The position numbers were made by a program, and so were the translations under genes. Below are positions 3,989 to 43,107 of a stretch of 64,000 bases of DNA, in pieces. This DNA comes from a virus. The notes below the pieces were generated by a model. The model saw only the letters and a program-made list of their open reading frames with translations, was not told the origin of the DNA and made no database searches. Position 1 is the stretch's first letter; every line of letters begins with the position of its first letter. The DNA lies in the IMG/VR virus record IMGVR_UViG_3300046167_000873, positions 64,001 through 128,000 of that record; one strand, written 5' to 3'.

Positions 3989-5086
3989 TTATGCGGGTGG
4001 ATATGGTGATTGCGATGTTTGTGCAATACCAAAATTATCTTCGCTTGCAATTTCATTCTTATCAAGTGATTGTAAATCTGGAATAGATATTGTGACGGTT
4101 GGCGTAGAAGTATAACCGCTCCCACCATTTGTAACTATAATTTCTTCTACGTCATCTGTAGATCCAATTGTTGCTGTTGCAACCGAGTTAGCTCCACCAC
4201 CACCAGTAATAGTAACAGTAGCAGCAGAATATCCATAACCAGGTTCTGTAACTATAATATTGGTTACTTCACCATCTGCTATAACTGCAACCGCCGTAGC
4301 TTGTTTTGAATTTAATGACGTATAAACTGTAGGTTGATTGTTAGCAAGCAATCCAGGTTGTAAAATCAATTTCGCAGCTGGATCAAGTTCTCCAATACTT
4401 TCAAAGATATCATCAAACGTAGAAGAATCAAATATTTGTGTGTTTGCTAGTTTAATAACTTTTTGTTGGTATATTGGTCCAAACATTTGACATTTCATGG
4501 TAAAATCAAGATTCCATATTTGAATCCTACGCTCTTCGTATCCGCCTTCATATGATTCATCAAGACTAACAGCATTTAAAGTTAAAGGAACATCTAATGT
4601 AATATCAGGTGTTTCTATTAACTGTACAGTGCTTGTCCATTCTGGTGTAAAGTAAGGAACAATTTGTTCTACAATTCTAGTGCCATCTACTGAATTCTTT
4701 ACGAATACAGATAAATTAAATGTTATATCATAAGGTACAGGCATATATTGATAATATCTTTTATCTTTATTATTGTCTATATCTTCAATTGTATATTTGT
4801 TAATTGTTGATAGTTTTCTTTCTGGGGCATAATTAAACCCGGTTATTTCAAAACCCATTCTTGGAACAACCATTGCAAACTGTTGCCCTTGAGGATCATA
4901 ACCATCAGTTAAACCTTGAATCCTTGCTAGCTGCTTATCTCTAGGTCCATATGTTAATGGTATTTTAAGGACGTCTTTTACGTTACCAGAAGAATCTTCT
5001 CGGTTGATCCATACGTCATTAAATAACGTACCAAATAAAATAACATACTTACGTAAAGTGTCGTGAAAATATGTACGGCCGAACAT
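3989..5086 (-). CDS. gp15: Tail sheath stabiliser/tail terminator with C-terminal beta-repeat insertion
   Basis: FGTLFND, IPLTYGP, PVPYDITFNL, IVEQIVPYFTP motifs; synteny. Confidence 0.92.
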   Translation of the reverse strand: MFGRTYFHDTLRKYVILFGTLFNDVWINREDSSGNVKDVLKIPLTYGPRDKQLARIQGLTDGYDPQGQQFAMVVPRMGFEITGFNYAPERKLSTINKYTIEDIDNNKDKRYYQYMPVPYDITFNLSVFVKNSVDGTRIVEQIVPYFTPEWTSTVQLIETPDITLDVPLTLNAVSLDESYEGGYEERRIQIWNLDFTMKCQMFGPIYQQKVIKLANTQIFDSSTFDDIFESIGELDPAAKLILQPGLLANNQPTVYTSLNSKQATAVAVIADGEVTNIIVTEPGYGYSAATVTITGGGGANSVATATIGSTDDVEEIIVTNGGSGYTSTPTVTISIPDLQSLDKNEIASEDNFGIAQTSQSPYPPA

Positions 5087-5815
5087 TTAGTATTCTCCCC
5101 CTTCACTGAAAGGATCTTGTTCAGACCAATCAATAAAATCAGACATTAATTGCAGTGATGCATTATCACTAAACGGATCATCTGGATTCCAATCACTTGA
5201 AACTCCAACAGGTCTTCCCGTATTAGCATCTATAATGACATTGTTGTTTGCATCTCTCATTAATCCATCTAGCTCATCAGGTGCTTGACTATACTTCGCT
5301 TGAAGTGCGTCAATTTCAGGAACACCTGTACTTAATTTTTCGCTTGAATATTCAAACATCTCACAGCGTAAATCGTGAACTTGCAAAGAACCCATTTGAT
5401 AGAATACAGATTCATGCTCTGCAAATTTAATAACATAGACTTTACCAGTTAAAGGCATAAAAATAAGATCGCCTTCACGTGGTCGTGGTGCATCTATATA
5501 ATCGCCAATAGTTTCTTGGTAAACTCGATTTGCAATAGTGAATGTAATTTCATCACGGATTTGGATATTGAATCGACTTAAGAAATGCCCTTCTCCTTCA
5601 AATCCTTCAACATTCTTGATATACATCTCAACGAAATAAGAACTTTCATACGATGATGTAGCATCTTCATTATAAGGAGTATCATAGTCATTAATTTTTC
5701 TTGGGCAATACCAAACATCGTGGCCATATATTTTAATAGACTCGATGACCAGATCTTCGATAAGACTCTGTTCTGCCGTGTTTTGAAAATTGTCAAAATA
5801 AACTGACGTGGCCAT
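5087..5815 (-). CDS. gp14: Neck protein
   Basis: EQSLIEDLVIESIKIYG, PREGDLIF, FYQMG...LRCEMFEYSSE. Confidence 0.93.
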   Translation of the reverse strand: MATSVYFDNFQNTAEQSLIEDLVIESIKIYGHDVWYCPRKINDYDTPYNEDATSSYESSYFVEMYIKNVEGFEGEGHFLSRFNIQIRDEITFTIANRVYQETIGDYIDAPRPREGDLIFMPLTGKVYVIKFAEHESVFYQMGSLQVHDLRCEMFEYSSEKLSTGVPEIDALQAKYSQAPDELDGLMRDANNNVIIDANTGRPVGVSSDWNPDDPFSDNASLQLMSDFIDWSEQDPFSEGGEY

Positions 5816-6649: not shown

Positions 6650-7003
6650 TTAAACTGAAGTGACGCCGGCTTTTACGAATATTTTTCCTTCCAATACCCT
6701 TTCGACGAAAGTAGTATTTGCTGATGTTGTTGAAATAACGACGTCATAGACGTATCTATCATTCCAATCTAATGCAGCTGTTTGTTCATTTGTCAAAGAT
6801 ATAGTAATAAGGCCATTATTTGCTGGAGCAACAATTTCTGTGTCAAAGCTCACACTCGTTGTAGAGTTATATCTTTTCTTTAATTCAGCATTGACAGTAT
6901 AAGATTCTAAATCTTTGTATGTGACACCATCAGTATCATAAACATAAAATGAATGTGACAAATCAGCGTTCTGCTCAACTGTCAAATCTTCGTTCCTGGC
7001 CAT
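6650..7003 (-). CDS. Ig-like virion protein (BppU/fibre-adaptor-like)
   Basis: ISLTNEQTAAL...YVYDVVI...RVLEGKIFV pattern, typical of the small gene upstream of gp13 in T4-like phages. Confidence 0.6.
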   Translation of the reverse strand: MARNEDLTVEQNADLSHSFYVYDTDGVTYKDLESYTVNAELKKRYNSTTSVSFDTEIVAPANNGLITISLTNEQTAALDWNDRYVYDVVISTTSANTTFVERVLEGKIFVKAGVTSV

Positions 7004-7035
7004 GTGATTTCCTAGCAATAAAATTCTTATGATTT

Positions 7036-7043
7036 TATTTATA
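7036..7043 (-). promoter_or_regulatory. Late promoter TATAAATA
   Basis: Exact motif in the intergenic gap upstream of the neck operon. Confidence 0.8.
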
Positions 7044-7054
7044 TAGGCTTGGTT

Positions 7055-7666
7055 TTAGATATTATAGGGATCGGCAAAGTTCATAGCTATATTCAACCTT
7101 TCTTCTTCACTTTTATTGGTTTCAACGCTATGTGATAACCACGCAGGAAATACAATCAATTCGTATTCTTTAGGCACATACACCATTGAACTTTTAAATT
7201 GATTATGAAGGTAAGGCGTTTCCATATAATTAGGAAGCATCGAATGTACACCAAACGAAAAGTTTTCGTGGCGACTAAACCTAATTCCACCTTGATCTGG
7301 TTTTTGTTTTAAATAATATACCGCAGCAAGAACTGCACCAGGGTGAGTATGGTCACAATTGTAATCGCCGTTCATATTCGAATTAAACCAGCCATAAGAC
7401 ATCATAAGATTCTCATTCATGAGAAAATATCTACGGCACAATTCGTTAATGTGTTTTTCTGCAACTTGGTACATATTATCAAGTGCAGGATTTATTTTTC
7501 TATCCGCACCTCTTTGCCAACCGCCTACATTAGAACGAATGATACCATCAGGATCTTCTTTACGAACTTGTTTGCAATGTTCAATGATAGCAAGGTTATC
7601 AACCTCTTCTGATAAATCAAAAGTATGAATTGCATCGTGCCATAGTTCGATTTTATTGCCTGACAT
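7055..7666 (-). CDS. Putative 2OG-Fe(II) oxygenase (TIGR02466-like)
   Basis: N..HTHPGAVLAAVYY, LIVFPAWLSHSV, RLNIAMN. Confidence 0.85.
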   Translation of the reverse strand: MSGNKIELWHDAIHTFDLSEEVDNLAIIEHCKQVRKEDPDGIIRSNVGGWQRGADRKINPALDNMYQVAEKHINELCRRYFLMNENLMMSYGWFNSNMNGDYNCDHTHPGAVLAAVYYLKQKPDQGGIRFSRHENFSFGVHSMLPNYMETPYLHNQFKSSMVYVPKEYELIVFPAWLSHSVETNKSEEERLNIAMNFADPYNI

Positions 7667-8318
7667 ATCTATGCCCTAATACTAAGTCAGTAGGAGCAAA
7701 TGGCACACTTAAACTAATTCGATCAGTTAATGATTCGATACAATGGTATTGTTTATACGGAATATACAGACAATCACCAGGATGCAACTCGTCTTCTATT
7801 AAGATGTTTTGTGACAAATCAAAGTCCCGCTTCATATTAAATTCTTCTGGGTGTATACTTAACTCTTCTGTGTGTATAAAATGACCTGCTTTATTGCCAT
7901 ATACTATAACTTTACTTACACCATCTAATTGAAATATGAGGTTAGTACAATTATCAAAATGTGGTGCAAAACCACCACCCTGAGCCTTAGAAATATATAG
8001 GTGACTACCTACAATTGGCTGTTCATCTTGTGCAGAAAAAATATCTCTAATCAATTCAATTAATTGATATGATTGGGAGTCTTTGATATCAATTTCCCAA
8101 TTAGTAATTACGAGCGAATGATTTTCTTCGTCAAAAGCTTTTCGTGCTTCTTCTCCAAATAGTCTATTTGATGACTGCATACCTGGATGTAATTTATCTA
8201 TCGCATCCATAACAACTGAAGGATCTATGTGCATATTATGCATTTTTCTAATAATTGCAGGATGATCGTTATACTCCATTTCAGCTCTTAATGCATATAA
8301 AAAAGAAGTTTCAATCAT
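7653..8318 (-). CDS. JmjC/cupin-4 (ribosomal oxygenase-like) hydroxylase
   Basis: GFAPHFD (HxD), QLDGVSK, LHPGDCLYIPYKQYH, RISLS. Confidence 0.85.
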   Translation of the reverse strand: MIETSFLYALRAEMEYNDHPAIIRKMHNMHIDPSVVMDAIDKLHPGMQSSNRLFGEEARKAFDEENHSLVITNWEIDIKDSQSYQLIELIRDIFSAQDEQPIVGSHLYISKAQGGGFAPHFDNCTNLIFQLDGVSKVIVYGNKAGHFIHTEELSIHPEEFNMKRDFDLSQNILIEDELHPGDCLYIPYKQYHCIESLTDRISLSVPFAPTDLVLGHRYVRQ

Positions 8319-9058
8319 AATATTGTGTGCTCATTTTTACTTGGTCGCATAAACATTTTTCGATACCATTGTTTAGCTGTAGATGGTGTACTTCTTTCTT
8401 TGTGAAGATCAATTTTATCAGCAATTCTACATGTAGATGTTATATTACCTTTTTGTAAAGGTATTATATGAAATAACGGTGTTCCAGCTTTAATCATAAA
8501 CCGCCCTTTTACAATAGGTGCAGCAATCATATTCATAGTATTAAATCCTTTGCTAGTATCAATAATGCCAGGATAGATATGAATCTTTCTTGCAATGTTG
8601 CCGTGATAATATGCTGGCATTAATGCAAATGAAAGATCAGTTGACTCAACCGCCCAGGGTGTTGTAAAATGCATTGCTTTTGGTCTTATGAGTTCAGAAT
8701 ATATAGGTAGCCTTGCAGGTATATCTGGGGATAATCCGTTACCTGCTGCTACAATTGGACAATGTTTTTTTAACGCTTCGTCTACAGGTGTAGACCTCTG
8801 ATTAACAGGGTCTGGATCACCATAATAAACCATGGTGCTTTTATCTGATGCGAATACATGTATATCCGTCCATGCTGGCATTATCCAACCGGTGTCTCTA
8901 TAGTCGGCCATTCCTGGACAAACAGTAAAACTGTCTTTTCCGTCTTTTTCTTTTTGAACATTTGATATGTTTTCAGTTTTTGAAGCAAGAGTAATAGGAT
9001 ACCAATGGATAACACCCATGTCTGATTTATCAATAAACTGAACATTAAAATCTGTCAT
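8315..9058 (-). CDS. Conserved phage protein with dUTPase-like beta-clip features (DUF6065-like)
   Basis: CPGMADY..GWIMPAW, PGIIDT, IKAGTPLFHIIP motifs; this family often sits beside oxygenases in aquatic T4-like phages. Confidence 0.6.
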   Translation of the reverse strand: MTDFNVQFIDKSDMGVIHWYPITLASKTENISNVQKEKDGKDSFTVCPGMADYRDTGWIMPAWTDIHVFASDKSTMVYYGDPDPVNQRSTPVDEALKKHCPIVAAGNGLSPDIPARLPIYSELIRPKAMHFTTPWAVESTDLSFALMPAYYHGNIARKIHIYPGIIDTSKGFNTMNMIAAPIVKGRFMIKAGTPLFHIIPLQKGNITSTCRIADKIDLHKERSTPSTAKQWYRKMFMRPSKNEHTIL

Positions 9059-9666
9059 TGTATTTGCCCTTTACCACGCACCCAAAAAACAAGAGTTTTT
9101 CTTATACCCTCACTGACAGGAGTAACACAATGGTGCATTGACGAATCAAATAAAATAACATCACCTTTATTCAAGGTAATATCTGTTGCCCTATTTTGAT
9201 CACCACCCGAAAGATCGATTTTAAGATCACCACCTTTATAGTCACTAGGATCTGATAACATCAAAACGCCTGATATCATACGATCCATTGGAACATAACC
9301 ATGCAAAGAACTATCACGATGCCAACCGTAATATGCATCATCTGAACCGTGGTATATAGTATATTGAAGATTTTCTATATGATCGATATTATACAAGAAT
9401 AAGTCGTAATTAGCTTGACTTACAATGCTAGCAAGTTTTTCAAAAATGAAACCGGTGTTTTCATCTATTGGAAGCCACCCGGTTTTTGTGATGCGTGTGT
9501 TAGGGTCTACTGAGCCTTCTTGCCCATCACCAACCTTAGCATCATCGAATTCTATAATCTTTTCGAAAAAAGTAATTCTATCAATTTCTTCTGCGTCGAA
9601 AGCGCCTTGAATCGTACCGTGCCGCTGCAACGGTACAGTAGGCAAAAGTTTTTGCACTGGGAACAT
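9055..9666 (-). CDS. 2OG-Fe(II) oxygenase, prolyl-4-hydroxylase/PKHD-like
   Basis: YGWHRD (HxD), DYKGGDL, HCVTPVSEGIRKTLVFW (distal His and Arg). Confidence 0.9.
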   Translation of the reverse strand: MFPVQKLLPTVPLQRHGTIQGAFDAEEIDRITFFEKIIEFDDAKVGDGQEGSVDPNTRITKTGWLPIDENTGFIFEKLASIVSQANYDLFLYNIDHIENLQYTIYHGSDDAYYGWHRDSSLHGYVPMDRMISGVLMLSDPSDYKGGDLKIDLSGGDQNRATDITLNKGDVILFDSSMHHCVTPVSEGIRKTLVFWVRGKGQIQ

Positions 9667-9709
9667 AATAATCCACCTTAAAAATTAACATTATAACATA
9701 CGATAAAAT

Positions 9710-11653
9710 CTATGTGTACTTTATATTTATAAACCCACCAGAGCCGACTGTTGCAGTTGCCTGTTTAGTTGCAGTACTTCCAGTTGATGGAATACCTCTT
9801 GGATCCCAAACAGTTGTTTGAGATGATGGGCCTGTTATAGGACCAAATCCACTTGCATTGGCGCCGGGTGCAGTAATAACCCCTGCGGTTCCTAAATTAA
9901 CGGTAGTTGGTGTTCCAGGTTGCCCTGATGTAAATCCTGACGAAAAGCTGTATGGTTGTACTGTAAACGCAGGAGTTACATTAAATCCACTTGTTGGCTT
10001 TTGACCAGTAACTCCATAAGAATAAGGCTGATTATAAGAATATTGCTGAGGCTTTTGCCCAGTTGTAGCAAACGTGTAAGGTTGTGTATAAGAATACGGC
10101 TGTGGCTTTGATCCAGTTGTAGCAAACGAATATGGCTGTACCAGAAAACCACTTGCAGGTTTTTGACCAGTTGTTGCAAATGGATACGGCGTTAATCTAA
10201 AGACACTTGTTACAGGTTTTGTTCCAGTCGTACCATACGAATATGGTTGCGAAAAGAATACACTTGTTACAGGTTTTGTTCCAGTTGTTGCAAACGAATA
10301 TGGTTGCACTCTAGTACCGCTTACTGGTTTAGTACCACCAGCTTGAAACGGATACGGTTGATTATATGAATATTGTACTTGCTTAGTACCGCCTGCTTGA
10401 AACGGATAAGGCTGTGAAAAGTATCCAGAAGCAGGAAAAGTACCAACAGCTTGAAAAGGATATGGCGCAATCCGAAAACCAGCGTTTGGTGTTTGCCCTT
10501 GAGTTGGTGTAATACCAGCAGCGGTATAATTATATGGCTGTTGATTGTCAACTGGCTTTTGGCCAGTCAAGACTCTCCATCCAGATCTTGCTGTTCCATA
10601 TGGGAATGGCTTCGCTCCCCACTTACTACCTTGAGCCGTATATGTATAAGGCGACGATGATGGTTGATTTGGGCCAGAGGGGTTTCCCTGCAGCGAGGCA
10701 CACTGCGGGATTGGTCTTCGGTTCGTTGAAAAAACACCGTCGGCGTTGATTGTGCATTGAGTTTGCGCAGTCCTTACTTTGAAACCACTTCCTGGGACCG
10801 GATATTGATATTTGTACGAAGTAAAACTAAAAGTACTGAAATCCGTATAAGAATATGGCTGACCATAAGGATAGGATGAAAATGTTGTAAATGGCTTTTG
10901 GCCAGTAGTTTGATACGCATAACCTACATTATATGGATATGGTGATTGAAAACCATAAGATTGCGGTGTAGAACCGAATGTACCGTATGTATAAAACCCA
11001 GTATATGAATATAAAGCCTGTTTAGAGCCGGTTGTTGCAAATGAATATGGCTGCGAACTGAATACACCAGTAACTGGCTTTGTTCCAGTCGTACCATATG
11101 TATATGGTTGATTGTAACCATATGGTTGTTGCTTAGTACCACCTGCCTGAAAAGGATATGGTTGATTATATGAATATTGTACTTGTTTAGTACCAGGCGC
11201 CTGAAAAGGATATGGTTGATTATATGAATATTGCTGTGGTGTTTGCCCTTGAGTAGTATATGGATATGGTGCTTGAAAACCATAAGGTTGTTGCTTAGTA
11301 CCACCTGCTTGAAACGGATAAGGCGTTAACCTAAAAACTCCAGTTACAGGTTTTGTACCAGGTGCTTGAAAAGGATATGGAGTTAACCTAAAAACATTAG
11401 TTACAGGTTTAGTACCACTGACAGTAAATGGATAAGGTGATTGATAACCGTATGGCTGATTATAAGAATACGGTTGTTGTTTAGTACCAGATGAATAGGT
11501 ATTAAAACCGCCAGTAGAAGATCCTCCTTGCAAAGAAACTTCTAATAATTTTCTTCCATAGGGTAAAGATATTTGACCAGGAGTTGTGCGGGTTACATCA
11601 AATGTATCAGCCCATGTCCTATTTAAAAAACCCTTTCCACCGCCAGCTGGCAT
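9710..11653 (-). CDS. Pro/Tyr/Gln/Thr/Gly repeat protein; putative fibre-tip appendage/adhesin
   Basis: 647 aa. About 20 units of G(T/Q/S)K...PY(P/S/T)(F/Y)xxx in two arms around a C-x17-C core. Gly-rich termini (SLQGG...; GSGGFINIKY). SD AAGGAG. Lies directly downstream of a fibre gene. Confidence 0.75.
   Translation of the reverse strand: MPAGGGKGFLNRTWADTFDVTRTTPGQISLPYGRKLLEVSLQGGSSTGGFNTYSSGTKQQPYSYNQPYGYQSPYPFTVSGTKPVTNVFRLTPYPFQAPGTKPVTGVFRLTPYPFQAGGTKQQPYGFQAPYPYTTQGQTPQQYSYNQPYPFQAPGTKQVQYSYNQPYPFQAGGTKQQPYGYNQPYTYGTTGTKPVTGVFSSQPYSFATTGSKQALYSYTGFYTYGTFGSTPQSYGFQSPYPYNVGYAYQTTGQKPFTTFSSYPYGQPYSYTDFSTFSFTSYKYQYPVPGSGFKVRTAQTQCTINADGVFSTNRRPIPQCASLQGNPSGPNQPSSSPYTYTAQGSKWGAKPFPYGTARSGWRVLTGQKPVDNQQPYNYTAAGITPTQGQTPNAGFRIAPYPFQAVGTFPASGYFSQPYPFQAGGTKQVQYSYNQPYPFQAGGTKPVSGTRVQPYSFATTGTKPVTSVFFSQPYSYGTTGTKPVTSVFRLTPYPFATTGQKPASGFLVQPYSFATTGSKPQPYSYTQPYTFATTGQKPQQYSYNQPYSYGVTGQKPTSGFNVTPAFTVQPYSFSSGFTSGQPGTPTTVNLGTAGVITAPGANASGFGPITGPSSQTTVWDPRGIPSTGSTATKQATATVGSGGFINIKYT
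9724..9731 (-). promoter_or_regulatory. Candidate late promoter TATAAATA for the oxygenase cluster
   Basis: Exact motif 58 bp upstream of the 9666 start; it lies within the last codons of the repeat gene, so it could be coincidental. Confidence 0.55.
9935..10498 (-). repeat. C-terminal arm: tandem 54/57-bp (18/19-aa) coding repeats
   Basis: e.g. GTKQVQYSYNQPYPFQAG, GTKPVTSVFRLTPYPFATT, GSKPQPYSYTQPYTFATT. Confidence 0.9.
10904..11488 (-). repeat. N-terminal arm: tandem 54/57-bp (18/19-aa) coding repeats
   Basis: e.g. GTKPVTNVFRLTPYPFQAP, GTKPVTGVFRLTPYPFQAG, GTKQVQYSYNQPYPFQAG. Confidence 0.9.
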
Positions 11654-11662
11654 ACTTACTCC

Positions 11663-13007
11663 TTATTGTGCAAATCCAGCATTACGGAAACTCAAGCTAC
11701 CGTATATCTGTCCACTTATATTTATAAAGCTATATATGTCTATTCCAGAACTAGGAGGTGGTTCAATACCATCTGACCAAAAAACTTTATCTGCTTCACC
11801 TGATCCTGGCCACGTGCAAGATCTAGCAGTTCCATTATTGTTAATGACTAATGTAAACGTTGTAGATCCGCCGGCTGCGGTTGCAGCATAATTAGAAAAG
11901 TCAATCGAGTATGAAGCGGTTGGTGTAAATGTGTGTACTGACCCACTATTAACATCAAGTGTGTACGCAGTACCAGAACCGCCTGCAACAACCTTTTCTT
12001 GAAAACAATCATTAGCTGTAATTCTTGCTGCATTAACACCATTGTTATTAACTTCAATTCTTTCTGTTCCACCAGTTACAACTCTAAATTGATCTGCTGC
12101 ATGAAATTGCGCGTAAGTATTAGTATCACCAATGTGAACAATAGCATTACCAAGATTAACATTAGCTGTTGCTGTAACATTAGGAGCAGTAATGAGACCA
12201 GAGCCTGATACAGTAATATTAGAAGTCGTTGCTAAAGTAGACGTAAGAGTTAATCCTCGGCCTGTAATATCACCAGAAGTATTAACATCAAATACTTGTG
12301 ACATTGTAACGTCACCGTCAATTGCAACTGTAGCCGCTGCACCTGAAAAATAACGTAAACCAGATGAGTCAAGAATAAGTGCTTGTTTATTGAAATCTGA
12401 GTTACCAGCTGAAGAAACAAATGCGTCGGCAACACCTGATTTTGGCCTAACTGCATATCCAAGTGCAATACCACCTGATGATGCCATTGATCCAACAGTC
12501 GCTATTTTATTAGCACCAGTATAATTGCCTGCTAGCATTAATGCGCCAGAGGTTGATGTTGCATCACCTGCGGTAATTACACCTGAGGATGATCCAGTCG
12601 CAACAGTAATATCAGTATTAAATGTTGTTGTTGACGTAGATTCATCAATGAACATTACATTTACATTGGAACTAGGTGTCACCAAGATTAATAATAAAAT
12701 CTTTAGATGTACCGTTATCTGTAATAGTAACTCCGCTAGGAGTAAAACCAAACTTTGCACGATCATTAGACAAAAAGCTTGATGTGCCGCTAGTGGTATT
12801 ACCATCATCAATTCTAATTACAGATTGAGCAGAAGTTGCAGCAGTAACATCAAGTGCGTACGCAGGATTTGATCTGTTAATACCAACCCTATCGGTAGAA
12901 GAATTGACAAATAAAGTGTCTGTATCAACTGCTACGTTTCCACCAACATCTAAGCCGCCAGTGATTTTTAAACCATCAAGCGCATCGAATTTTTGTGAAG
13001 TTGCCAT
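11663..13007 (-). CDS. Tail fibre protein split by a +1 frameshift near 12675
   Basis: The 5' ORF (VDTDTLFVNSSTDRVGIN) ends at GGT GAC ACC TAG. The fibre-like sequence continues in the next frame (PSSNVNVMFID...GDTNTYAQF...VFWSDGIEP...IDIYSF). The first ~45 aa of the 382-aa ORF look like shadow sequence. Confidence 0.75.
11719..11726 (-). promoter_or_regulatory. Candidate late promoter TATAAATA upstream of the repeat-protein gene
   Basis: Exact motif 66 bp upstream of the 11653 start, inside the 3' end of the fibre gene. Confidence 0.5.
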
Positions 13008-13437: not shown

Positions 13438-16400
13438 TTATACTCTCGTCTCTATCTTCAGGACCTTAAATCGGTGAACATCCGTAACTGATGCAGCGGA
13501 ACAAGTTGCTTGTAAATCAATATGCGTTGTGTTAGCAGCAAGAACAGGTACAATACTAACTGTGCCTATATTCGAATCAACTTCACCGTATCGTGTATAG
13601 TATATATCTTTGTTATCAGTCACGATAATATTAACTTCTACAGCATAACCAGAATCCGCATCGTTAAGGTTTTCGCCGTGAACAAAATACTTAAATCCTT
13701 GTGTTTGACCAACTTCGAAGCTATCAATTACTGTAGCAGCAGTCGTTGTAACATCACCACCTGTACCTGTAAATGCAACACCATTTGCTTCAAGAGATGA
13801 TACCTCAAGATTTAAGATGACTGCTGTATTAGATACAAATAAGTTTTCAAATATAGTATTACCAGAGAGTGTCAATCCATCAGGTAAAGATGCACTATCA
13901 TCAACAACAAGATTATCTACTGTCAGCGTATTTGTACTTGGGTTGAATGTAAAGGTAGTGTCACCTCTAGCATCTTGATAACCAGATGTTGCTCCAGCAA
14001 AAACGACTGGTTGGTTAGCGTTAGTCGTTGAGGTATGCATCTGAATAGTATTTGATTGAGCAGCAGTACCTGAAATATTAGAGCTAATTTCAGCAGGCAA
14101 TCGAGCATCGTTAACTGTTCCAGTTGTAAGAGCAGTTGCATTTAGATTCGTTAGAGATGCACCATTACCTGTGAACGTAGTTGCACCAACATCACCAGTA
14201 ACTGTAATACCAGTAGATATTGTTTCTAGTTTAGTAGTTCCGTAATGACTTAACAATACAGAACCAGTACTACCATCAGCTCTAACATAATCTGTTACAC
14301 CGCCAGTAGAATCGTCTGACTGTATTGCAACATCTTGATCATTGCCAAACTGTCGAATCAATAAACTGCTTTGTAAAGCATCGATGTTGTTGCCGGTTCC
14401 AGAAGCTTTTATCGATAGATCAACTGTAGTACCAAACGTTAATATTTGACCATCATCAAATCGCAATGCGTCTGCTGATTTGTCCCACTCAACATTCCCA
14501 AGAGTACCTAAAATCGTAATATCGTTTTCAAACTGTGATGTACTAGAAACAAGTAACGTATCAGTATCTGTTTCGCCAGTTACATTAATACCGGTTGCAG
14601 TAGTTTCTATTTTAATATTACCTGCGTGAGTAACTTCAACTGCGCCAGCTGCAACACCTCGAATATAATTAGTTCCTGCAGTATCTTCAAGTACGATGTT
14701 GTTACCTTGGAGAACTAATGATCCAGAACCGCTTTCAGTTATAACACTAGCAGAACCGTCGTTATACAACTGCATCGTTGTGCCGAGTTGTATAATTTCA
14801 TTATCGCCAACAGTAACGCCATCAGCAACGAGTGTTCCTGTGACTGTAGCACCTGTTGCAGATGTTTCGAATTTAACATTTCCTGCATGAGTTACAGCAA
14901 CTGAAGCTCCCGCTGTACCTAAGATATAATCATTACCTGCAGTATCTTCTAAGACAAGATTGTTAGCTTGAAGACGAAGGCTACCAGGACCATTTTCTTT
15001 GATGATTGAATCGCCAGCTACTTCATGGAAGATTTGTAAATCATTTGAAGTTCCGAATGTGGCTTTTATGTCATCATTAAAGTTTAGTAGATCTTCTGAT
15101 GAATCCCAATGTAATGCATCAACAGTAGTACCATCGAAGAATGCATCATCTTCAAACAACGCAGTTGATCGTACTCTTAATGTATTTGTATTGGCATCAT
15201 TTACAATCTGAAGACCAGCATCGTTGATAGTCATTTCAACTGTGTTGGCATTCGGTGAATAGTATTCAACCCGATCACCATCAATTGCTGAAATATATCG
15301 AGTGTCATCGGATGCAGTCAACAGTAGATTAGTTGATCTAACAATTAAGCTACCAGTACCTTGCTCATCAACGTAAGAAGCAGAACCGGTGTGGTAGATT
15401 CTTAAATCTTCATCAGTACCAAATGCTGCATAAACATCATCTTCAAAACTTAGTGTATTATTTGAAGATTCCCAAACAAGGCTATCTGCATCTAGTCCAG
15501 CTGATCCATCAAAGTAAGCATCTTCTTGAACTCGTAAAGTAACAGTATTTGCTTCACCGTATACTTCGATACCAGCAGTGTTTGTTTGTAGCTTAGATAT
15601 ATTGTTGTGGTAAAGAGTAACTTCACCTGATGTATTAGCAACGATTAAACTAGTTGTTCCTGTATCGTCAGTGACTCTGAAGTTGTCCTCAACGCGCATG
15701 AATAAATCGTTGGTGGTTTCTGTTACAAAACTATCTGTTCCATCAGTGACGATTGTGAAGTTGTGAGCCGCAGCATAATCTGCTCCACCCATTTCAATAG
15801 GTTGGTTATTGTATGTAACAATACCACCATTTGCAACCAACTCACCAGTGACTTCAACACCATGTGTATTTGTTTGTAGCCGTTCAACACCTTCGTAGTA
15901 AAGACGTACCGTACTATTATCTGCTACATTAGCAGTCATATACAGTTCTGAACCAGATTCTGATTTAATTTCTACAGTATCAGTAATAACATTAAGATCA
16001 GTTCTTGCCCGAATGTCTTGGTTGTCGGTATTAGAATATGCTCTACCAGCTGCTGTATAGAACATCTCCCAGTCATCGCTATCACCGAATGTGGCTTTGA
16101 CTGAATCACGATAATTCCATACTTCGCTTGTTGCATCCCAATGAACACTGTTTGAGTTTAAAGTATCATTGTCAAAGTTTGCATCTTGACGTACGCGCAG
16201 TGTAGTTGTATTTGCTTCGCCAAAGACTTCAACACCAGGTACTTCGCCTGCTTGAGTGCCAGTCGTTTCGAGACGTGCATCGCCGTTGTTATAAAGAACA
16301 ACTTCGCTTGATCCGTCGTTATTAGCAGTAATAAAATTTGTTGTACCTGGTTCGTCAGTAAGATTAAAACCTTCATGAACAAAGATATTTAAATCTCTAT

Positions 16401-17349
16401 CGCCAGATATAATAATACCGTCTGTGCCGTCAGTGTAAAGTTGGAAATTGTATGTTGCTATATCCTCACCACCATTATAGGGGTATGTGCCACCCATAAG
16501 GATTTTATTATTATCAAAGATAACAGCATCATCTTGTATAATGGTGTCACCATGTACAACTACACCATATGTATTAGTTGACAGTCGTACATCACCTTCG
16601 TAGTAAAGCTTAACAGTACTATTATCAGCAACATCGGCAGTAATATAAAGTTCTGCACCTGTCTCTGATTTAACTTCTATATTGTCAGTAATAAAATTAG
16701 TATCTGTTACAGCTCGAATATCTAAGTTATCTGTATTAGCATACATTCTACCAGTATCGTAGAACATTTCAAGTTGTCCAGTACCACCAAATATTTCCGT
16801 GCCAGTTGCACCACCAAATGTAGCGCGCACGTTATCATTAAAGTTTAGTTGGTTATTGGAACTTTGCCAATGCATTTGAGGGTTTGTATTTGTTCCTGCA
16901 GGACCATCGCCTACAAACAAGACATCGTATCGTGCCTCAATGTTATTCTCTACGATCAATCCGTATGTTGAATCAACATAAACTTCTACAGTTTCGTCTG
17001 TAAACGTTGTGTTAGTTGTTACATAAAGCGTATCAGATACAAAATCATTAGAAGAAAAATCAAAAGTACCACCACGCAATCCACCATACAAACCATTTGC
17101 ATAAGCGTTTATTGAAGGATCACGACCATCGTTAAACACAACAACTGCGTTAGCTGCAAACTGACCAAAAAGTGTCGCATTACCATAAGTTAAAGAACCG
17201 CCTGGAAGACCGTTCGCAGTCATCATAGAGGTCTGAGCACCAGTAGTATCACCGCGGGTAATCAGTATAAGCTCGTTTGTTTTGTTTAACCAATCGCTAA
17301 ATGTCTGCGTGCTTGGTTGTATCTCGTTAAATCCGGAGAGAAGTGCCAT
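13438..17349 (-). CDS. Long tail fibre / fibritin-anchored fibre protein with internal repeats
   Basis: N-terminal TFSDWLNKTNELI; repeated W...LNFNDNV(R/K)ATFG...DL.IF modules; acidic and beta-rich. Confidence 0.75.
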   Translation of the reverse strand: MALLSGFNEIQPSTQTFSDWLNKTNELILITRGDTTGAQTSMMTANGLPGGSLTYGNATLFGQFAANAVVVFNDGRDPSINAYANGLYGGLRGGTFDFSSNDFVSDTLYVTTNTTFTDETVEVYVDSTYGLIVENNIEARYDVLFVGDGPAGTNTNPQMHWQSSNNQLNFNDNVRATFGGATGTEIFGGTGQLEMFYDTGRMYANTDNLDIRAVTDTNFITDNIEVKSETGAELYITADVADNSTVKLYYEGDVRLSTNTYGVVVHGDTIIQDDAVIFDNNKILMGGTYPYNGGEDIATYNFQLYTDGTDGIIISGDRDLNIFVHEGFNLTDEPGTTNFITANNDGSSEVVLYNNGDARLETTGTQAGEVPGVEVFGEANTTTLRVRQDANFDNDTLNSNSVHWDATSEVWNYRDSVKATFGDSDDWEMFYTAAGRAYSNTDNQDIRARTDLNVITDTVEIKSESGSELYMTANVADNSTVRLYYEGVERLQTNTHGVEVTGELVANGGIVTYNNQPIEMGGADYAAAHNFTIVTDGTDSFVTETTNDLFMRVEDNFRVTDDTGTTSLIVANTSGEVTLYHNNISKLQTNTAGIEVYGEANTVTLRVQEDAYFDGSAGLDADSLVWESSNNTLSFEDDVYAAFGTDEDLRIYHTGSASYVDEQGTGSLIVRSTNLLLTASDDTRYISAIDGDRVEYYSPNANTVEMTINDAGLQIVNDANTNTLRVRSTALFEDDAFFDGTTVDALHWDSSEDLLNFNDDIKATFGTSNDLQIFHEVAGDSIIKENGPGSLRLQANNLVLEDTAGNDYILGTAGASVAVTHAGNVKFETSATGATVTGTLVADGVTVGDNEIIQLGTTMQLYNDGSASVITESGSGSLVLQGNNIVLEDTAGTNYIRGVAAGAVEVTHAGNIKIETTATGINVTGETDTDTLLVSSTSQFENDITILGTLGNVEWDKSADALRFDDGQILTFGTTVDLSIKASGTGNNIDALQSSLLIRQFGNDQDVAIQSDDSTGGVTDYVRADGSTGSVLLSHYGTTKLETISTGITVTGDVGATTFTGNGASLTNLNATALTTGTVNDARLPAEISSNISGTAAQSNTIQMHTSTTNANQPVVFAGATSGYQDARGDTTFTFNPSTNTLTVDNLVVDDSASLPDGLTLSGNTIFENLFVSNTAVILNLEVSSLEANGVAFTGTGGDVTTTAATVIDSFEVGQTQGFKYFVHGENLNDADSGYAVEVNIIVTDNKDIYYTRYGEVDSNIGTVSIVPVLAANTTHIDLQATCSAASVTDVHRFKVLKIETRV

Positions 17350-32658: not shown

Positions 32659-33093
32659 TTATCTTACTCTGTAGAGTGTTAGTTCTAGGTTAGCGACTTG
32701 GTTTGATGTTACAATTGCAAATTCTATATTAACGACAATAGCATTTTCATCGGGCTGTGAATCTACTGTGCAATCTATAACTCTCACTCTCGGTTCATGT
32801 GTTTCTATTGCATTATAGATTTCTTCTTTTATTTCTTCTTCGATATGACTATCGAATTGCTCAAAAACAAATCTACTTAAGCGTGTACCGAACTCAGGAT
32901 TGCGTAATCTTTCATACTTATTCGTCAATAAAAGGTTACGTAATGCTTGCTTTACAGATTCGACATTTACTTTTCTGGTAATCTGACCCGTATTAGGGTT
33001 AGGTAAAAATGATTTGTTTAAATCACTATACTTGTCAGCGAGTGCACCAGACTGTCTATATTCATCGTTTTCTTTGGCTATTCTAATGCCCAT
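32659..33093 (-). CDS. gp25: Baseplate wedge subunit / sheath initiator
   Basis: SVKQALRNLLLT..YER...PEFG, HEPRV. Confidence 0.93.
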   Translation of the reverse strand: MGIRIAKENDEYRQSGALADKYSDLNKSFLPNPNTGQITRKVNVESVKQALRNLLLTNKYERLRNPEFGTRLSRFVFEQFDSHIEEEIKEEIYNAIETHEPRVRVIDCTVDSQPDENAIVVNIEFAIVTSNQVANLELTLYRVR

Positions 33094-33117
33094 GAGAATA
33101 TTCCGTGTTTATAGTTT

Positions 33118-33125
33118 TATTTATA
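33118..33125 (-). promoter_or_regulatory. Late promoter TATAAATA upstream of gp25
   Basis: Exact intergenic motif. Confidence 0.85.
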
Positions 33126-33142
33126 CAACTTTAAGTGTAGCG

Positions 33143-35080
33143 TTAATACAACTTTAAGTATAACCTTAATTTTTCTATTTCTGAATTTAAGTCTGCGATC
33201 ATTGCTTGCTGTTCTTGTATTGCCTTGATCAACCGGGTCTCAACAGTTCCCAAACCAGAAACCTGTTTGAATCCATCTTCGCCTTCGCTAACCAGATCAG
33301 ACCAAGCTGTCTGCTCAAGTTCTTGTGCAATGAATCCCTCACCAGAACCTACTGTAGCATCTTTCCAGTCCCAACGCGCAGGACGTAAAGACATAATGTT
33401 GTCTATCTCTGACTCGTGGTCAACTATATTTTCTTTAAGTCGTATATCAGAGTTAGATGCAAAAGTTGGAGCGCTCGCTGAAGCTGCCTTTATTGTACCT
33501 GCTAGAGCATTCCCTCGGTAGAACTGAATAATGTTTGCAGAAGCTGTACCGTCTTGTCTGTTAATGGCTAATACAGTGTCACCGGTAGCTTCAAAAAGAC
33601 CTCGACCGTTGTTCAACAATGCAACACCCGCGTCGCCTGTACCAAAAGACGACGATGTCTTAGATACCAGGAGATTGCCTGAGGCGTCGATACGCATTCG
33701 CTCTCCGCTATTAGTTTCGAACCTCATGTGATTAGTGCCGTGGGCATACACAACCTTACCAACTGTATCGCTGGCGCTATCTCCAAACAACAGTTGACAG
33801 TTATCGTCATTAGTAGAAACTAAAGAAAGTAGAGTTGCTCCTGATCCGCTTAGAGTCAGAAGCCTAGAAGGACTATCAGTGCCAATACCTACGTTGCCAT
33901 CGCCGTCAAGAGTCATTCTATTTACGCTATCTGTAAAATCAAATAAATGAAACTTATCAGCGCTAGCATCAACATACCAAGCATAGGAACCTTGATTATT
34001 TGTTGCTTTAAAGGCGGCAACATTGTCTGTGCCTTCTACCTCTATTCTTGCAATTCCTGTTTTGTAAACGTGTAGCAGTTCTTCAGGAGATGATATACCA
34101 ATGCCCACTTGCCCATCGGAGCCAATGCGCATGGATTCGTCTGTCGCATTTCTATAGAACACAGTATCAGACGATGAGCCACCTGCTGCTGCGAAAAACG
34201 ATAGTTCACGAGTAGTTGTGTCCTTGGTGAAAATTGCTTTACGAGTGTTGGAGCTTGGGCCGCCTAGGACGATAGAGATAGGGCCTACGTCTGTGTTAGT
34301 TCCTGTAGATACTTCAAGTTTTTCTATAGGATTATCTGTACCAATGCCCATGTTTCCTGTGGAGTCAATGGTTACCCTATCGTTATTTCCGCCAGTTGCA
34401 AAAGTTAAGTTTTGGCTGAAAGTGTCACTAGTGATTTTAGCTGCTGTTATTCCGTCCGACCTAAATCGCAAAGCCGCGGCTGAAGGAGAATCTATCGCTA
34501 CTGTAACTGCGCCATTAGCGGTTCTAACGTCAAGCAGCGCAGTTGGATCTTCAGTGCCAATTCCAATATTTCCATCAGGCGTTACAACAAATCTTTCCTG
34601 AATAGTACCGGTATCATCATTTGTTTCAAGTACAATTTTCATTGGTACTTCGTTTGATGCAGCGGTATTGGCTACACCATCGACTTTAAATCTAATCGCA
34701 GAAGAAGGTTGGAAGTCTTCACCATCATGACCCCAGCAATAGATGCCACCTGCGATATCTCCATCTTCTACTGCCTCTGTGTTTGCTTGGCTGCCACGGG
34801 CTTTTCTTTGGGATATAACACCACCGCCGTTTGAGTCGCCAGAAAAAGTGATCATGTTTGGATTATCGGCATGTGGGGTAGTTCGATCAGTAATAATACT
34901 AATGACTGCGTCAGAGTTTGTTCCAAGGTTTAACTTACTGCTTGAACCAAAAGTTGCAGTTGGAATACTCGCATCAGGAACTGGAATATTATTAACGGTA
35001 TTTGCATATTCTTCTAATTCACCAATTACTTGATTGGATCTCGTTAGAATATCATTAATTGCATCATCGATATCAGACAT
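33143..35080 (-). CDS. Tail fibre/spike with C-terminal peptidase S74 intramolecular chaperone
   Basis: Repeated GNxGIGT..P units; SDIRLKENI cleavage motif, GFIAQELE, LIKAIQEQQ coiled coil. Confidence 0.9.
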   Translation of the reverse strand: MSDIDDAINDILTRSNQVIGELEEYANTVNNIPVPDASIPTATFGSSSKLNLGTNSDAVISIITDRTTPHADNPNMITFSGDSNGGGVISQRKARGSQANTEAVEDGDIAGGIYCWGHDGEDFQPSSAIRFKVDGVANTAASNEVPMKIVLETNDDTGTIQERFVVTPDGNIGIGTEDPTALLDVRTANGAVTVAIDSPSAAALRFRSDGITAAKITSDTFSQNLTFATGGNNDRVTIDSTGNMGIGTDNPIEKLEVSTGTNTDVGPISIVLGGPSSNTRKAIFTKDTTTRELSFFAAAGGSSSDTVFYRNATDESMRIGSDGQVGIGISSPEELLHVYKTGIARIEVEGTDNVAAFKATNNQGSYAWYVDASADKFHLFDFTDSVNRMTLDGDGNVGIGTDSPSRLLTLSGSGATLLSLVSTNDDNCQLLFGDSASDTVGKVVYAHGTNHMRFETNSGERMRIDASGNLLVSKTSSSFGTGDAGVALLNNGRGLFEATGDTVLAINRQDGTASANIIQFYRGNALAGTIKAASASAPTFASNSDIRLKENIVDHESEIDNIMSLRPARWDWKDATVGSGEGFIAQELEQTAWSDLVSEGEDGFKQVSGLGTVETRLIKAIQEQQAMIADLNSEIEKLRLYLKLY

Positions 35081-35089
35081 TATTTTTCC

Positions 35090-35671
35090 TTAAATGTTTG
35101 GCAGACCGTCAACTGTATTTTCGACATTATCAAGTGTCCCTCCAACCTCTGATACATCATCGACGACACCTTGTATTTCATCAGTTACGTCTGTAATACC
35201 GGCCTTTTCTAATATATCATCTTTTATTGTTTCTGCTTTTGCAAGCGCTTTGTTTGCTTGATCAATCAATTCATTTTCAATATCTCTCATTGCGCTTAAA
35301 ACTGCTTGCTCAGTACAAAACTGTAATCTATCAACCGCTGATGTAACAGAACTTGCAAGACCAGCTAAAGCACCTGCAAGTTGTGCAAGCTCAATTGCTT
35401 GTTTTGCCATAAGTTCTACTTGCGCAGCAATTGGTCCACCTACAACCTTTGAAGCCCAAGTAAGAATATCTAAAGGATCAGTTGGCAAGTCTACAAGAGG
35501 CGCCCATTGACTTGCGATATTAGTAATAGACTCTGTCTTTTGTTCTATAACACTGGTGATATCCTTTACCGCAGTATCAACATATCCCTGGATTGCCTGA
35601 CAGCTCGTGGCCGCATCGATATCTTCAGTTAGTTCTTCTATGTACGCAGTACTTTCGTTTACACTCGCCAT
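35090..35671 (-). CDS. Alpha-helical hypothetical protein downstream of gp5
   Basis: 193-aa acidic helical ORF, co-oriented and tightly spaced. Confidence 0.6.
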   Translation of the reverse strand: MASVNESTAYIEELTEDIDAATSCQAIQGYVDTAVKDITSVIEQKTESITNIASQWAPLVDLPTDPLDILTWASKVVGGPIAAQVELMAKQAIELAQLAGALAGLASSVTSAVDRLQFCTEQAVLSAMRDIENELIDQANKALAKAETIKDDILEKAGITDVTDEIQGVVDDVSEVGGTLDNVENTVDGLPNI

Positions 35672-35682
35672 TCTTATGCGCC

Positions 35683-37197
35683 CTACGTGATTGCTGTTAC
35701 GATACCGGCTATGACAGTAACTACCTTACCATCTGCCGAAGTAAATGAGCCTGATGCACCTTTTGTTGTTCCTAGGTTACCATCAACTTTAATGCCGCCG
35801 TCTACGTAAATACCAGCATTAATAACTAAACCGCCTTTTGCTTCTATCTTTTGAAACCCCTCAACAACAATATTACTGTCTTCTTTTACTGACATATAAT
35901 GTTGTTGTTGAATAGTTGTTATTTGTGCACCACCAACAATTGTCTTTTGGTTATTAGCAACTGTCAATATAAAATTATTCTTGTCCTCAATCGGAGCAGG
36001 TGTTAATCTGTACTCATTTGCCGGATCTACACCAACACTCAATACATAGTTATTGCCAGTTGTTTGTATTGTGTTATTAGATACATCTAAATATAGGTTA
36101 TTGCTGTCAATTGCACCTGTTTGATAGTTGTCCCTACCGTTATTATTTTTTCGATTATCAGGTGTTTGATCCCAACCAATTGTCCAGTGTGCAGTGTTAC
36201 CTATCTTTTGGGTTGACGTGTTTGCAACTTCTACGTTGTGATCTCTTAAAAGCAATTGATTCTTATCTTTAACAACGACCTCAAAAGAAGAGTCCATTGT
36301 CTTTTTGCTACGGCGACCTAAGTAATCGTCTTCGGTAACTCCACCTGCTGTTACATAAGAATAACCAGATGGTCCAAAATCAGGCCACGTAGTTTTATCC
36401 TTGTCACCTGATGATCTTGTATCGCCGTCAAAGAATGGTGATGGACCATTTGATATCTCTTCGTAACAACCACTGCGATGCCAAATATGTATTCTTTCAT
36501 GCTTAGGTGTATCATCTATTTCTATTGCATGACCAGATTTAGTCGTGTACGTTGTGTTATATGGATATTCTGTTGAGTATGCCGTAGGGAATTCATCAAC
36601 TGGTGATTTTTTCTTTGGGTCATCTTTCCACAAAGTACTAACACTGTATGGTTCTTTTGGAAGTGTTTGACCAGATCCACCACGCTCTTTCTCGTCATCA
36701 AAGAAATAACCTTTTGCAAGAGAGCTTACATCATGAAACTTAAAGTTCTCTTCAGGTGGTTCTCTTAGATCTTGAAGCATCGATTGTGGATCACTACCAG
36801 GTTCAGGATACATCGACACCTTATGGTATGTTCCAAAGATCATTGGAATATTTGCTTCGTGGCCGTCTAAATAAAAGCCAAAGCAATAAGTCCCTACTGC
36901 GATACCAGTCGGTGATAAGCCAACAGCATCAATCCAATCAGGTACAAATGTTTCTTCATCATATTCTAGTTCGTTAATTTTCTTCCAAGATAAGCTTGCC
37001 GATTGGATTGCAGACATCGGATATGCCCACAAAAGATCTTCATCTTCTAAACCAAATGTTTCTTTTTTAAGACCTAACTCACCAGTTTGATCGTGGATAA
37101 CACGTATTTTAACTCGGCCTAATCTTTCCTCGTCTTTTATATCTACAACTCTGGCCATAAACCAGTGAAAAGAATCTCCGAGATTATAATATGACAT
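35683..37197 (-). CDS. gp5: Baseplate central spike (gp5-like, OB-fold; no lysozyme domain evident)
   Basis: WFMARVVD..D...LGRVKIRV, GFYLDG..ANIPMIFG, EYPYN...TKSGHAIEIDDTP.HERIH..HRSG. Confidence 0.9.
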   Translation of the reverse strand: MSYYNLGDSFHWFMARVVDIKDEERLGRVKIRVIHDQTGELGLKKETFGLEDEDLLWAYPMSAIQSASLSWKKINELEYDEETFVPDWIDAVGLSPTGIAVGTYCFGFYLDGHEANIPMIFGTYHKVSMYPEPGSDPQSMLQDLREPPEENFKFHDVSSLAKGYFFDDEKERGGSGQTLPKEPYSVSTLWKDDPKKKSPVDEFPTAYSTEYPYNTTYTTKSGHAIEIDDTPKHERIHIWHRSGCYEEISNGPSPFFDGDTRSSGDKDKTTWPDFGPSGYSYVTAGGVTEDDYLGRRSKKTMDSSFEVVVKDKNQLLLRDHNVEVANTSTQKIGNTAHWTIGWDQTPDNRKNNNGRDNYQTGAIDSNNLYLDVSNNTIQTTGNNYVLSVGVDPANEYRLTPAPIEDKNNFILTVANNQKTIVGGAQITTIQQQHYMSVKEDSNIVVEGFQKIEAKGGLVINAGIYVDGGIKVDGNLGTTKGASGSFTSADGKVVTVIAGIVTAIT

Positions 37198-37208
37198 CTA
37201 TCTCTCCA

Positions 37209-39356: not shown

Positions 39357-39357
39357 T

Positions 39358-40566: not shown

Positions 40567-40575
40567 TGATATCCC

Positions 40576-40583
40576 TATAAATA
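40576..40583 (+). promoter_or_regulatory. Late promoter TATAAATA for the plus-strand operon
   Basis: Exact motif 6 bp before the gp4 ATG at the divergent junction. Confidence 0.8.
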
Positions 40584-40589
40584 GCTACT

Positions 40590-41642: not shown

Positions 41643-41647
41643 AACAC

Positions 41648-42175: not shown

Positions 42176-42190
42176 TAATGGAGAAAAATT

Positions 42191-43098: not shown

Positions 43099-43107
43099 GA
43101 AAAAAAC

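Follow-up and report, generated by a model that had tools for sequence, protein, structure and literature searches.

The window analyzed here is a stretch of 64,000 nucleotides (positions 64,001 to 128,000 of IMG/VR record IMGVR_UViG_3300046167_000873) and forms part of a 150.9-kb contig from an uncultured marine T4-like myovirus, estimated to be 83% complete. On its minus strand, between fibre genes and gp13, it carries a compact group of five genes that may form a system for the modification of a structural protein. The first gene encodes a repeat protein of 647 aa, the candidate substrate (9710-11653), and is followed after a gap of 43 nt by genes for a prolyl 4-hydroxylase (P4H)-like, PKHD-type Fe(II)/2-oxoglutarate (2OG) oxygenase (9055-9666, 203 aa; PF13640), a divergent DUF6065-like protein with a predicted dUTPase/dCTP-deaminase fold (8315-9058, 247 aa; phrog_7084), a single-domain JmjC oxygenase of the ribosomal-oxygenase type (7653-8318, 221 aa; PF08007), and a TIGR02466/PF13759 2OG oxygenase (7055-7666, 203 aa), with overlaps of 4, 4, and 14 nt between successive enzyme genes. 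The initial annotation of this DNA had described the same five-gene arrangement, which was borne out, and the four family labels that it assigned to the enzymes were upheld by domain, cut-off, and fold matches.

The repeat protein is composed of 12% Pro, 10% Tyr, 10% Gln, 14% Thr, and 12% Gly, and contains 78 prolines and approximately 21 units of 18-19 aa, with one G-[TSQ]-K per unit. Its prolines occur in the contexts QPY (19 times), YPF (nine times), and KPV (seven times), and the X-Pro-Gly context of collagen-type substrates is largely missing, with Pro followed by Gly in only 6% of repeat-core prolines. An N-terminal segment (aa 1-55) precedes an N-arm of about ten units (aa 56-250), each of which opens with G-[TSQ]-K and carries QPY or YPF, a central non-repeat segment with two cysteines (aa 251-363), a C-arm of about 11 units (aa 364-570), and a C-terminal segment ending in GGFINIKYT. 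The N- and C-terminal pieces probably clamp together, and the two repeat arms would then project to a small Cys-containing knob. A hidden Markov model (HMM) of the N-terminal domain (hereafter the N-domain) retrieved 42 open reading frames (ORFs) from related viral loci, all of which have a C-terminal strand of the same kind. The repeat units enclosed by these conserved termini are wholly different from phage to phage (NPYVPGNANY, NGPQNFNAPT, PATYNAQN, or NYPSRAVPDQPAYSVTT), and some family members have a glycine-rich core in place of the Pro/Tyr units; what is kept across the relatives is Pro together with Tyr or Phe, and the enzyme neighbour. The number of tandem copies of the repeat gene ranges from one to four, and at two loci (L010:5610-8407 and L058:5590-10504, the latter on a 263-kb contig) four tandem paralogs precede a single P4H/DUF6065 set.

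The repeat protein has no Pfam match, PF21722 (Gly_rich_2) included, and its N-terminal region found nothing in a set of 5.8 billion proteins. However, the N-terminus of the glycine-rich family members aligned to neighbouring PF21722 proteins with an hhalign probability of 94% (E 9e-8, over only 32 columns), and the nearest Atlas clusters of the repeat protein are Gly_rich_2 clusters (score 0.81-0.82, a lead only), whose names describe phage minor tail and tail-fibre proteins. In the repeat protein, an N-terminal strand with a Gly run and a C-terminal GG-x-V-x-I strand resemble this domain, and classical PF21722 members also adjoin P4H-like genes, in cyanophage-type loci and in phage S-SSM5; unlike them, the repeat protein has two Pro/Tyr arms instead of a glycine-rich core. 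We read it, from these sequence resemblances, as a derived and divergent member of a Gly_rich_2-type tail/fibre superfamily.

All three oxygenases have kept their catalytic residues. The P4H-like protein matches PF13640 with 51.4 bits (cut-off 27; E 2.3e-13), its best solved relatives are the PKHD hydroxylases Sbal_3634 and PiuC, and the HxD...H triad and 2OG-binding arginine (H116, D118, H179, and R189) are invariant in 16 orthologs. A literature search on PiuC function and on prolyl hydroxylation of phage virions returned nothing relevant, but a prolyl-3,4-dihydroxylase-like oxygenase has been detected in purified virions of cyanophage S-SCSM2R (PMC12801897). The JmjC protein matches PF08007 (JmjC_2) with 43.4 bits (cut-off 22; 3e-11), has NO66, YxbC, YcfD, and FIH as its nearest solved relatives, and carries H120, D122, and H192 in place when aligned to NO66. 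At 221 aa it ends with the JmjC domain, compared with 373-489 aa for the solved ribosomal oxygenase (ROX) enzymes, whose C-terminal dimerisation and winged-helix domains it is missing. The TIGR02466 protein scores 77.5 bits against a cut-off of 62.5 over residues 12-198 of 203 (PF13759, 2e-18), its metal ligands are present, and its solved relatives, 3bvc and 2rg4, are both of unknown function. A large cluster of tailoring-type genes also occurs in a cultured phage, cyanophage Syn9 (L285, record 32965-43144), where genes for two putative tryptophan halogenases precede twelve overlapping genes of approximately 200 aa that include the JmjC homolog gp49 and annotated 2OG oxygenases.

The remaining enzyme-block protein has no Pfam match, PF19541 (DUF6065) included, at E <=0.1, and the phage's own contig has no canonical DUF6065. 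True PF19541 proteins from related cassettes nevertheless match it at 1e-5 to 1e-12 and its nearest Atlas clusters are viral DUF6065 (0.96-0.97), which by sequence comparison makes it a divergent, recognisable paralog of the true family. As an earlier AlphaFold2 (AF2) model built from nine sequences was too weak (predicted local distance difference test score, pLDDT, 61), a model from a 71-sequence alignment (pLDDT 86.6) was used instead. Each of its 22 best VIA matches is a dUTPase or dCTP deaminase (Z 9.4-5.3), and the matches ranked next, at Z <=4.7, have unrelated folds, so that the modelled structure supports a fold of the dUTPase/dCTP-deaminase superfamily. A motif-III-like G-I-(I/V)-D (G164, D167) is near-invariant, and motifs II and V were not recognised by eye. 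A complex prediction for the P4H-like and DUF6065-like proteins scored 0.00, which gives no verdict and is evidence neither way. The divergent subfamily had no match in 185,579 species genomes with the motif used, and a literature search found no paper that mentions DUF6065.

Starting from the DUF6065-like protein, we found 49 viral loci, 20 of which are T4-like (L002-L021). A P4H ortholog lies 0.75-2.2 kb upstream in all 20 of these T4-like loci and is itself preceded by an N-domain repeat protein in 14, and by a truncated Pro/Tyr-rich ORF in two more; the other four have too little upstream DNA to judge. Their usual order is fibres, repeat protein, P4H, DUF6065, DUF6065-like, often a GT60 glycosyltransferase gene, and gp13. 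Across all 49 loci, a 2OG oxygenase is found within about 2.2 kb upstream of the DUF6065-like gene in 45, and it is directly adjacent in most of L022-L050. These last loci hold a second type of cassette (e.g. L042:6256-11737), which lies between Gly/Thr/Asn-rich fibre genes, lacks a Pro/Tyr protein, and comprises two proteins of approximately 250 aa, a 540-aa protein with a C-terminal methyltransferase domain, a TIGR02466-type oxygenase, the DUF6065-like protein, and a 346-aa protein that is weakly DUF401-like. A complete cassette of P4H, DUF6065, DUF6065-like, and GT60 genes was also present on a 4.4-kb contig of a Chitinophagaceae metagenome-assembled genome (MAG; L205, DOMR01000007.1), most likely as phage DNA binned into a bacterial MAG.

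The initial annotation had suggested examining synteny across viromes, and the outcome was positive from the side of both substrate and enzyme. When the N-domain of the repeat protein was used as the starting point, 21 loci were found, and a P4H gene lies within 2 kb in 20/20 that are informative, 13 of them on contigs absent from the DUF6065-like search. Seven loci with glycine-rich cores have a reversed order, with two P4H-type genes, one further gene, and then the N-domain protein, and no DUF6065. Starting from the P4H sequence motif only, 80 loci were found, which were ranked in tiers; the closest tier consists of ten orthologs (E <=1e-55 to the ortholog HMM), and neighbours were counted as fibre-like if they were N-domain, Pro/Tyr-rich, or Gly-rich proteins. 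A fibre-like protein lies within 3 kb of nine of these ten closest orthologs, the tenth locus being only 2.5 kb long, and fibre-like ORFs make up 8.5% of those near a P4H motif gene vs 2.9% farther off (Fisher p = 0.015). Three gene orders were seen in all, namely repeat-P4H-DUF6065-DUF6065', P4H-P4H'-x-repeat, and repeat-DUF6065-P4H. As the pairing persists through three gene orders and changing companions, and as the P4H orthologs share 31-47% identity, we argue that it has been kept by selection. The cultured cyanophage S-SSM5 shows this arrangement too, with a fibre, a 138-aa protein homologous in position, and a Gly_rich_2 protein followed by a cluster of 2OG oxygenases.

A PF11397/GT60 gene (E 5e-33) follows the cassette in many relatives, and most of them add both a second DUF6065 and this glycosyltransferase. 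The GT60 family includes Gnt1, the UDP-GlcNAc:hydroxyproline transferase of Skp1, which acts only after the prolyl hydroxylase PhyA (PMC6939170). In the relatives, a Pro-rich repeat protein with first a P4H-type gene and then a GT60 gene behind it therefore strongly hints at glycosylation of hydroxyproline. The likeness is to the Skp1 pathway of Dictyostelium and Toxoplasma, in which the prolyl 4-hydroxylase PhyA is followed by Gnt1 (PMC6939170, PMC3515798), and the related phage cassettes presumably have the same order of action; it differs in that a single proline in a cytoplasmic eukaryotic regulator is the site of modification in the Skp1 pathway, whereas the proposed phage targets are dozens of prolines in a structural repeat, and the window is without GT60. 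The GT60-like protein had no relative among solved structures. At the end of one cassette (L005:10653-12224), GT60 is fused to a class-I methyltransferase domain in a single 523-aa protein.

The JmjC and TIGR02466 genes stand in the window's cassette where relatives carry GT60. Among the cassette loci, JmjC occurs only in this phage and in L002, which repeats the window's gene order, including JmjC, TIGR02466, and the LtfC-like gene. The repeat cores of 17 family members are almost uncharged, with a K+R fraction of 0-0.029. The exceptions are the repeat proteins of the window, with one Lys per unit (K 0.041), and of L002, with one Arg per unit (R 0.055), and JmjC is confined to these same two loci. 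The residues hydroxylated by this type of JmjC enzyme are Arg, His, or Lys. This coincidence suggests the basic residue as the target, and thus that the JmjC and TIGR02466 enzymes may hydroxylate the Lys or Arg of each repeat unit.

Taken together, these comparisons favour a reading in which the five genes represent a conserved substrate-plus-tailoring module for a structural protein of aquatic T4-like phages, a proposal to which we give an even chance. We are equally divided on its central claim, that the P4H-like enzyme, along with its DUF6065-type partner, would modify the adjacent repeat protein. According to the proposed mechanism, the P4H-like oxygenase would be made from the same late, translationally coupled block as the repeat protein and would hydroxylate the prolines of its repeat units, with the DUF6065-type protein acting as an obligatory companion of the oxygenase that possibly binds a uridine nucleotide. 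In most relatives, GT60 would then glycosylate the resulting hydroxyproline in the manner of Gnt1 acting on Skp1. This phage and L002 would have the JmjC and TIGR02466 oxygenases in place of GT60, and alongside this exchange every repeat unit would have gained a Lys (here) or an Arg (L002) that these enzymes hydroxylate. The full picture, with hydroxylation at multiple sites, glycosylation in the relatives, and JmjC acting on Lys or Arg, is more doubtful, and we put it forward only tentatively. The same reserve applies to the idea of a hairpin fibre that is multiply hydroxylated by a dedicated P4H-like enzyme and, in most lineages, glycosylated by GT60, with GT60 swapped here for JmjC and TIGR02466, and with enzymes and repeats co-evolving as a programmable surface chemistry. 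Each chemical step, and the incorporation of the repeat protein into the virion, is what we infer from the observed gene order, intact active sites, folds, and co-occurrence.

A number of observations weigh against the tailoring of the repeat protein. The support for it comes from comparative genomics, and most of the supporting loci are T4-like with a conserved gene order and are thus not fully independent. Searches of 50,697 phage records by megablast and tblastn did not find a cultured phage with the full cassette. The proline context varies, Pro-Gly accounting for 6% of prolines here vs 25-47% in many relatives. As for the claim in the initial annotation that all four enzymes modify the repeat protein, the link by synteny is strong for the P4H and DUF6065-type genes, but for JmjC and TIGR02466 it is confined to two genomes, and the connection of JmjC to Lys or Arg relies on the same two genomes, which are related. 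Its further expectation of a hydroxylated and perhaps glycosylated appendage fits the GT60 genes of the relatives, but no GT60 was detected in the 150.9-kb contig of the window, as far as that 83% complete contig extends. In addition, a fibre-like neighbour is present in only 10/23 and 10/43 loci of the two more distant P4H tiers, in which it is usually a PF21722 protein. Oxygenase clusters that stand apart from any repeat or fibre gene, which the initial annotation regarded as contrary to its proposal, are therefore not a feature of the close orthologs but do occur among the distant members. As these distant P4H-like genes are often without a fibre-like neighbour, not all phage 2OG oxygenases can be reassigned as virion-tailoring enzymes.

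This last point is accommodated by a host-directed role, in which the PKHD-type and JmjC enzymes would be auxiliary gene products that hydroxylate ribosomal proteins, EF-Tu, or other proteins of the host and so tune translation, and would be encoded near fibre genes only because this region gathers accessory genes. The closest relatives of the phage enzymes are the ribosomal oxygenases (YcfD, NO66, and MINA53) and PKHD-type enzymes (PiuC/YbiX and Tpa1/OGFOD1), with which they share the same metal and 2OG ligands and which also supply the best solved structures, and the characterised PKHD and ROX-type JmjC members act on ribosomal proteins and translation factors. Moreover, 2OG oxygenases are scattered in cyanophage genomes and routinely listed as auxiliary metabolic genes, a homolog in Roseobacter phage CRP-810 is located among DNA-metabolism genes, and 47/76 motif-found P4H-like genes have no fibre-like neighbour. 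Against this, the closest orthologs co-occur with the repeat protein in both search directions at nearly every informative locus, and the pairing survives the changes of gene order and companions described above. The short JmjC protein lacks the extra domains of the ribosomal oxygenases, and the repeat protein, DUF6065, and GT60 are not known partners of either the ribosomal-oxygenase or the PKHD families. The genes are also co-oriented and overlapping inside the late structural block. We judge a host-directed role to be unlikely.

The neighbours of DUF6065 elsewhere raise another alternative, namely that the block, or its P4H and DUF6065 core, makes or modifies a nucleotide, a nucleotide-sugar, or a DNA base and has nothing to do with the repeat protein. 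In both HF1-type haloviruses and cyanophage S-RIM4, DUF6065 adjoins ribonucleotide reductase, and its recurrence there in two virus groups that are unrelated to each other is a hint that its activity may concern nucleotides rather than protein tailoring. The homologs concerned (L286, halovirus HF1, 6911-7795; L287, cyanophage S-RIM4, 6995-7789) are 25-40% identical to the paralog of the phage cassettes. True DUF6065 genes are also present at 80 mostly alphaproteobacterial loci without an oxygenase partner or a clearly conserved neighbour. The dUTPase/dCTP-deaminase fold of the DUF6065-like model, the dUTPase motif-III-like GLVDTDKY that is kept in the true paralogs, and a weak match of the P4H-like protein to PF09859 'Oxygenase-NA' (E 0.01) are all consistent with such an activity, as is the pattern of an oxygenase, a uridine-nucleotide-binding protein, and a glycosyltransferase, which recalls base J or the glucosyl-hydroxymethylcytosine of T4. 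On the other hand, the block lies in a late structural operon, outside the DNA-metabolism module, GT60 enzymes are known as polypeptide transferases, and a nucleotide substrate would leave the tight link with the repeat protein unexplained. This alternative is improbable in our estimation, although DUF6065 itself may have a role in nucleotide binding, possibly of UDP-sugar or UDP, rather than in protein chemistry.

It is also conceivable that the enzymes tailor a different structural protein of the phage, either one of the neighbouring fibres or a collagen-like protein encoded 13 kb away. The latter, of 381 aa, is encoded in the same genome on the minus strand (G000:C1:59811-60956), 3-4 kb before the window start, and contains 49 uninterrupted G-X-Y triplets with 13 Pro and 10 Lys in the Y position. 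In the collagens of animals and mimivirus, the Pro and Lys of G-X-Y triplets are what prolyl and lysyl hydroxylases classically act on, and distant P4H-like genes often adjoin PF21722 glycine-rich tail proteins. The collagen-like gene is, however, not adjacent to the cassette, and the conserved partner of the enzymes is the N-domain repeat or glycine-rich protein, not a G-X-Y collagen; the neighbours have long Gly runs but lack regular triplets. We hold the tailoring of a different structural protein to be quite improbable and retain the adjacent repeat protein as the preferred target.

The initial annotation had also drawn attention to copies of TATAAATA upstream of the genes. The distances that it gave are exact: on the minus strand, one copy (9724-9731) lies 58 nt before the start of the P4H-like gene, inside the last codons of the repeat gene, and another (11719-11726) lies 66 nt before the start of the repeat gene, inside the preceding fibre gene. 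The late-promoter argument is weak, as the motifs are not conserved in relatives; TATAAATA was found upstream of orthologous genes in 3/57 and 2/32 cases, vs a background of 5.5%, which adds to the observations above that count against tailoring. Both copies lie in codons for the C-terminal F-I-N-I of the preceding protein. With the rate upstream of orthologs at background, they were rejected as conserved late promoters. In the window as a whole there are 14 copies vs 7.7 expected, an approximately twofold enrichment. A third copy (7036-7043, minus strand), the only intergenic one in this part of the window, is located between the enzyme block and the LtfC-like gene, and the next late transcription unit probably begins there. 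Scans for sigma-70 promoters and terminators yielded nothing above shuffled sequences. From its position alone, the enzyme block would be expressed late.

The genes around the cassette are transcribed in the same direction. Upstream, a fibre protein of 1303 aa (13438-17349, minus strand) is encoded among genes with phrog tail-fibre matches, and small and fibre-like ORFs on the minus strand between 13438 and 11663 are transcribed before the repeat gene. The fibre gene immediately before the repeat gene consists of two overlapping minus-strand ORFs in different frames, 12672-13007 (111 aa) and 11663-12811. Its equivalent in L002 is a single 340-aa ORF (4271-5293), which matches the N-terminus of the former and the C-terminus of the latter, and the split at 11663-13007 may reflect a frameshift, a programmed shift, or the presence of two separate genes. 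Downstream of the enzyme block is a gene for an LtfC-like, tail-fibre-assembly-type protein (6650-7018, minus strand, 122 aa; PF23926, phrog_3304), whose listed TTG start is probably wrong, with an ATG about 15 nt further downstream, and this is followed on the minus strand by gp13, gp14, gp15, gp16, and gp17. The gp13 protein shares 63% identity with its counterpart in Stenotrophomonas phage DLP_6 and 41-53% with the counterparts in Caulobacter, Sinorhizobium, Methylophilales, Pelagibacter, and cyanobacterial T4-like phages. No match to the region, the repeat protein, or the DUF6065-like protein turned up in the 50,697 phage records searched by megablast and tblastn, and close relatives of the region were not found in IMG/VR.

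Related strategies have been described in other viruses. The chlorella virus PBCV-1, in a report attributed to Eriksson et al. in 1999, is said to encode both a prolyl 4-hydroxylase and Pro-rich repeat proteins as its possible substrates, and thus resembles our phage in that a P4H-type 2OG oxygenase and many short Pro-containing repeats are encoded by one virus. Unlike the phage, PBCV-1 is a eukaryotic giant virus, its enzyme and substrates do not form one cassette, its repeats are of the PAPK rather than the Pro/Tyr type, and it has no DUF6065, JmjC, TIGR02466, or GT60 partner. In mimivirus, collagen-like proteins are reportedly modified by the lysyl hydroxylase/glycosyltransferase L230 and the P4H L593. 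Here too, viral hydroxylases, some with glycosyltransferases, tailor the virus's own repetitive fibre proteins, as is proposed for the phage; the mimivirus substrates are true G-X-Y collagens and its enzymes belong to the lysyl hydroxylase and collagen P4H families, whereas our virus is a tailed phage and its proposed substrate is a Pro/Tyr repeat that is not a collagen. Mycobacteriophage glycosyltransferases reportedly glycosylate the C-termini of capsid and tail-tube proteins directly (work ascribed to Freeman et al. in 2023), and these modifying enzymes are likewise encoded beside structural genes, but without an oxygenase step or a repeat substrate. Our literature search found no hydroxylase-based tailoring cassette for a structural protein of a tailed phage, and a module that combines such a substrate with its tailoring enzymes is apparently undescribed.

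Marine T4-like phages encode numerous Fe(II)/2OG oxygenases without an assigned substrate, which are usually listed as auxiliary metabolic genes (AMGs). For one conserved subgroup of these oxygenases, our analysis provides a testable alternative in which the substrate is the repetitive fibre-like protein encoded next door, and it gives the DUF6065 family a first functional context. If this proposal is true, part of the 2OG-oxygenase load of marine phages would serve virion tailoring rather than host metabolism, and AMG counts in viromes would be inflated by structural tailoring genes. The compact pair of enzyme and repeat could also be used to produce hydroxylated repeat proteins in bacteria. 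Phage adsorption structures would then carry hydroxyproline and, in relatives of this phage, also a hydroxyproline-linked sugar, a chemistry so far known from eukaryotes and giant viruses, and bacteriophages would thereby have their first hydroxyproline glycoprotein.

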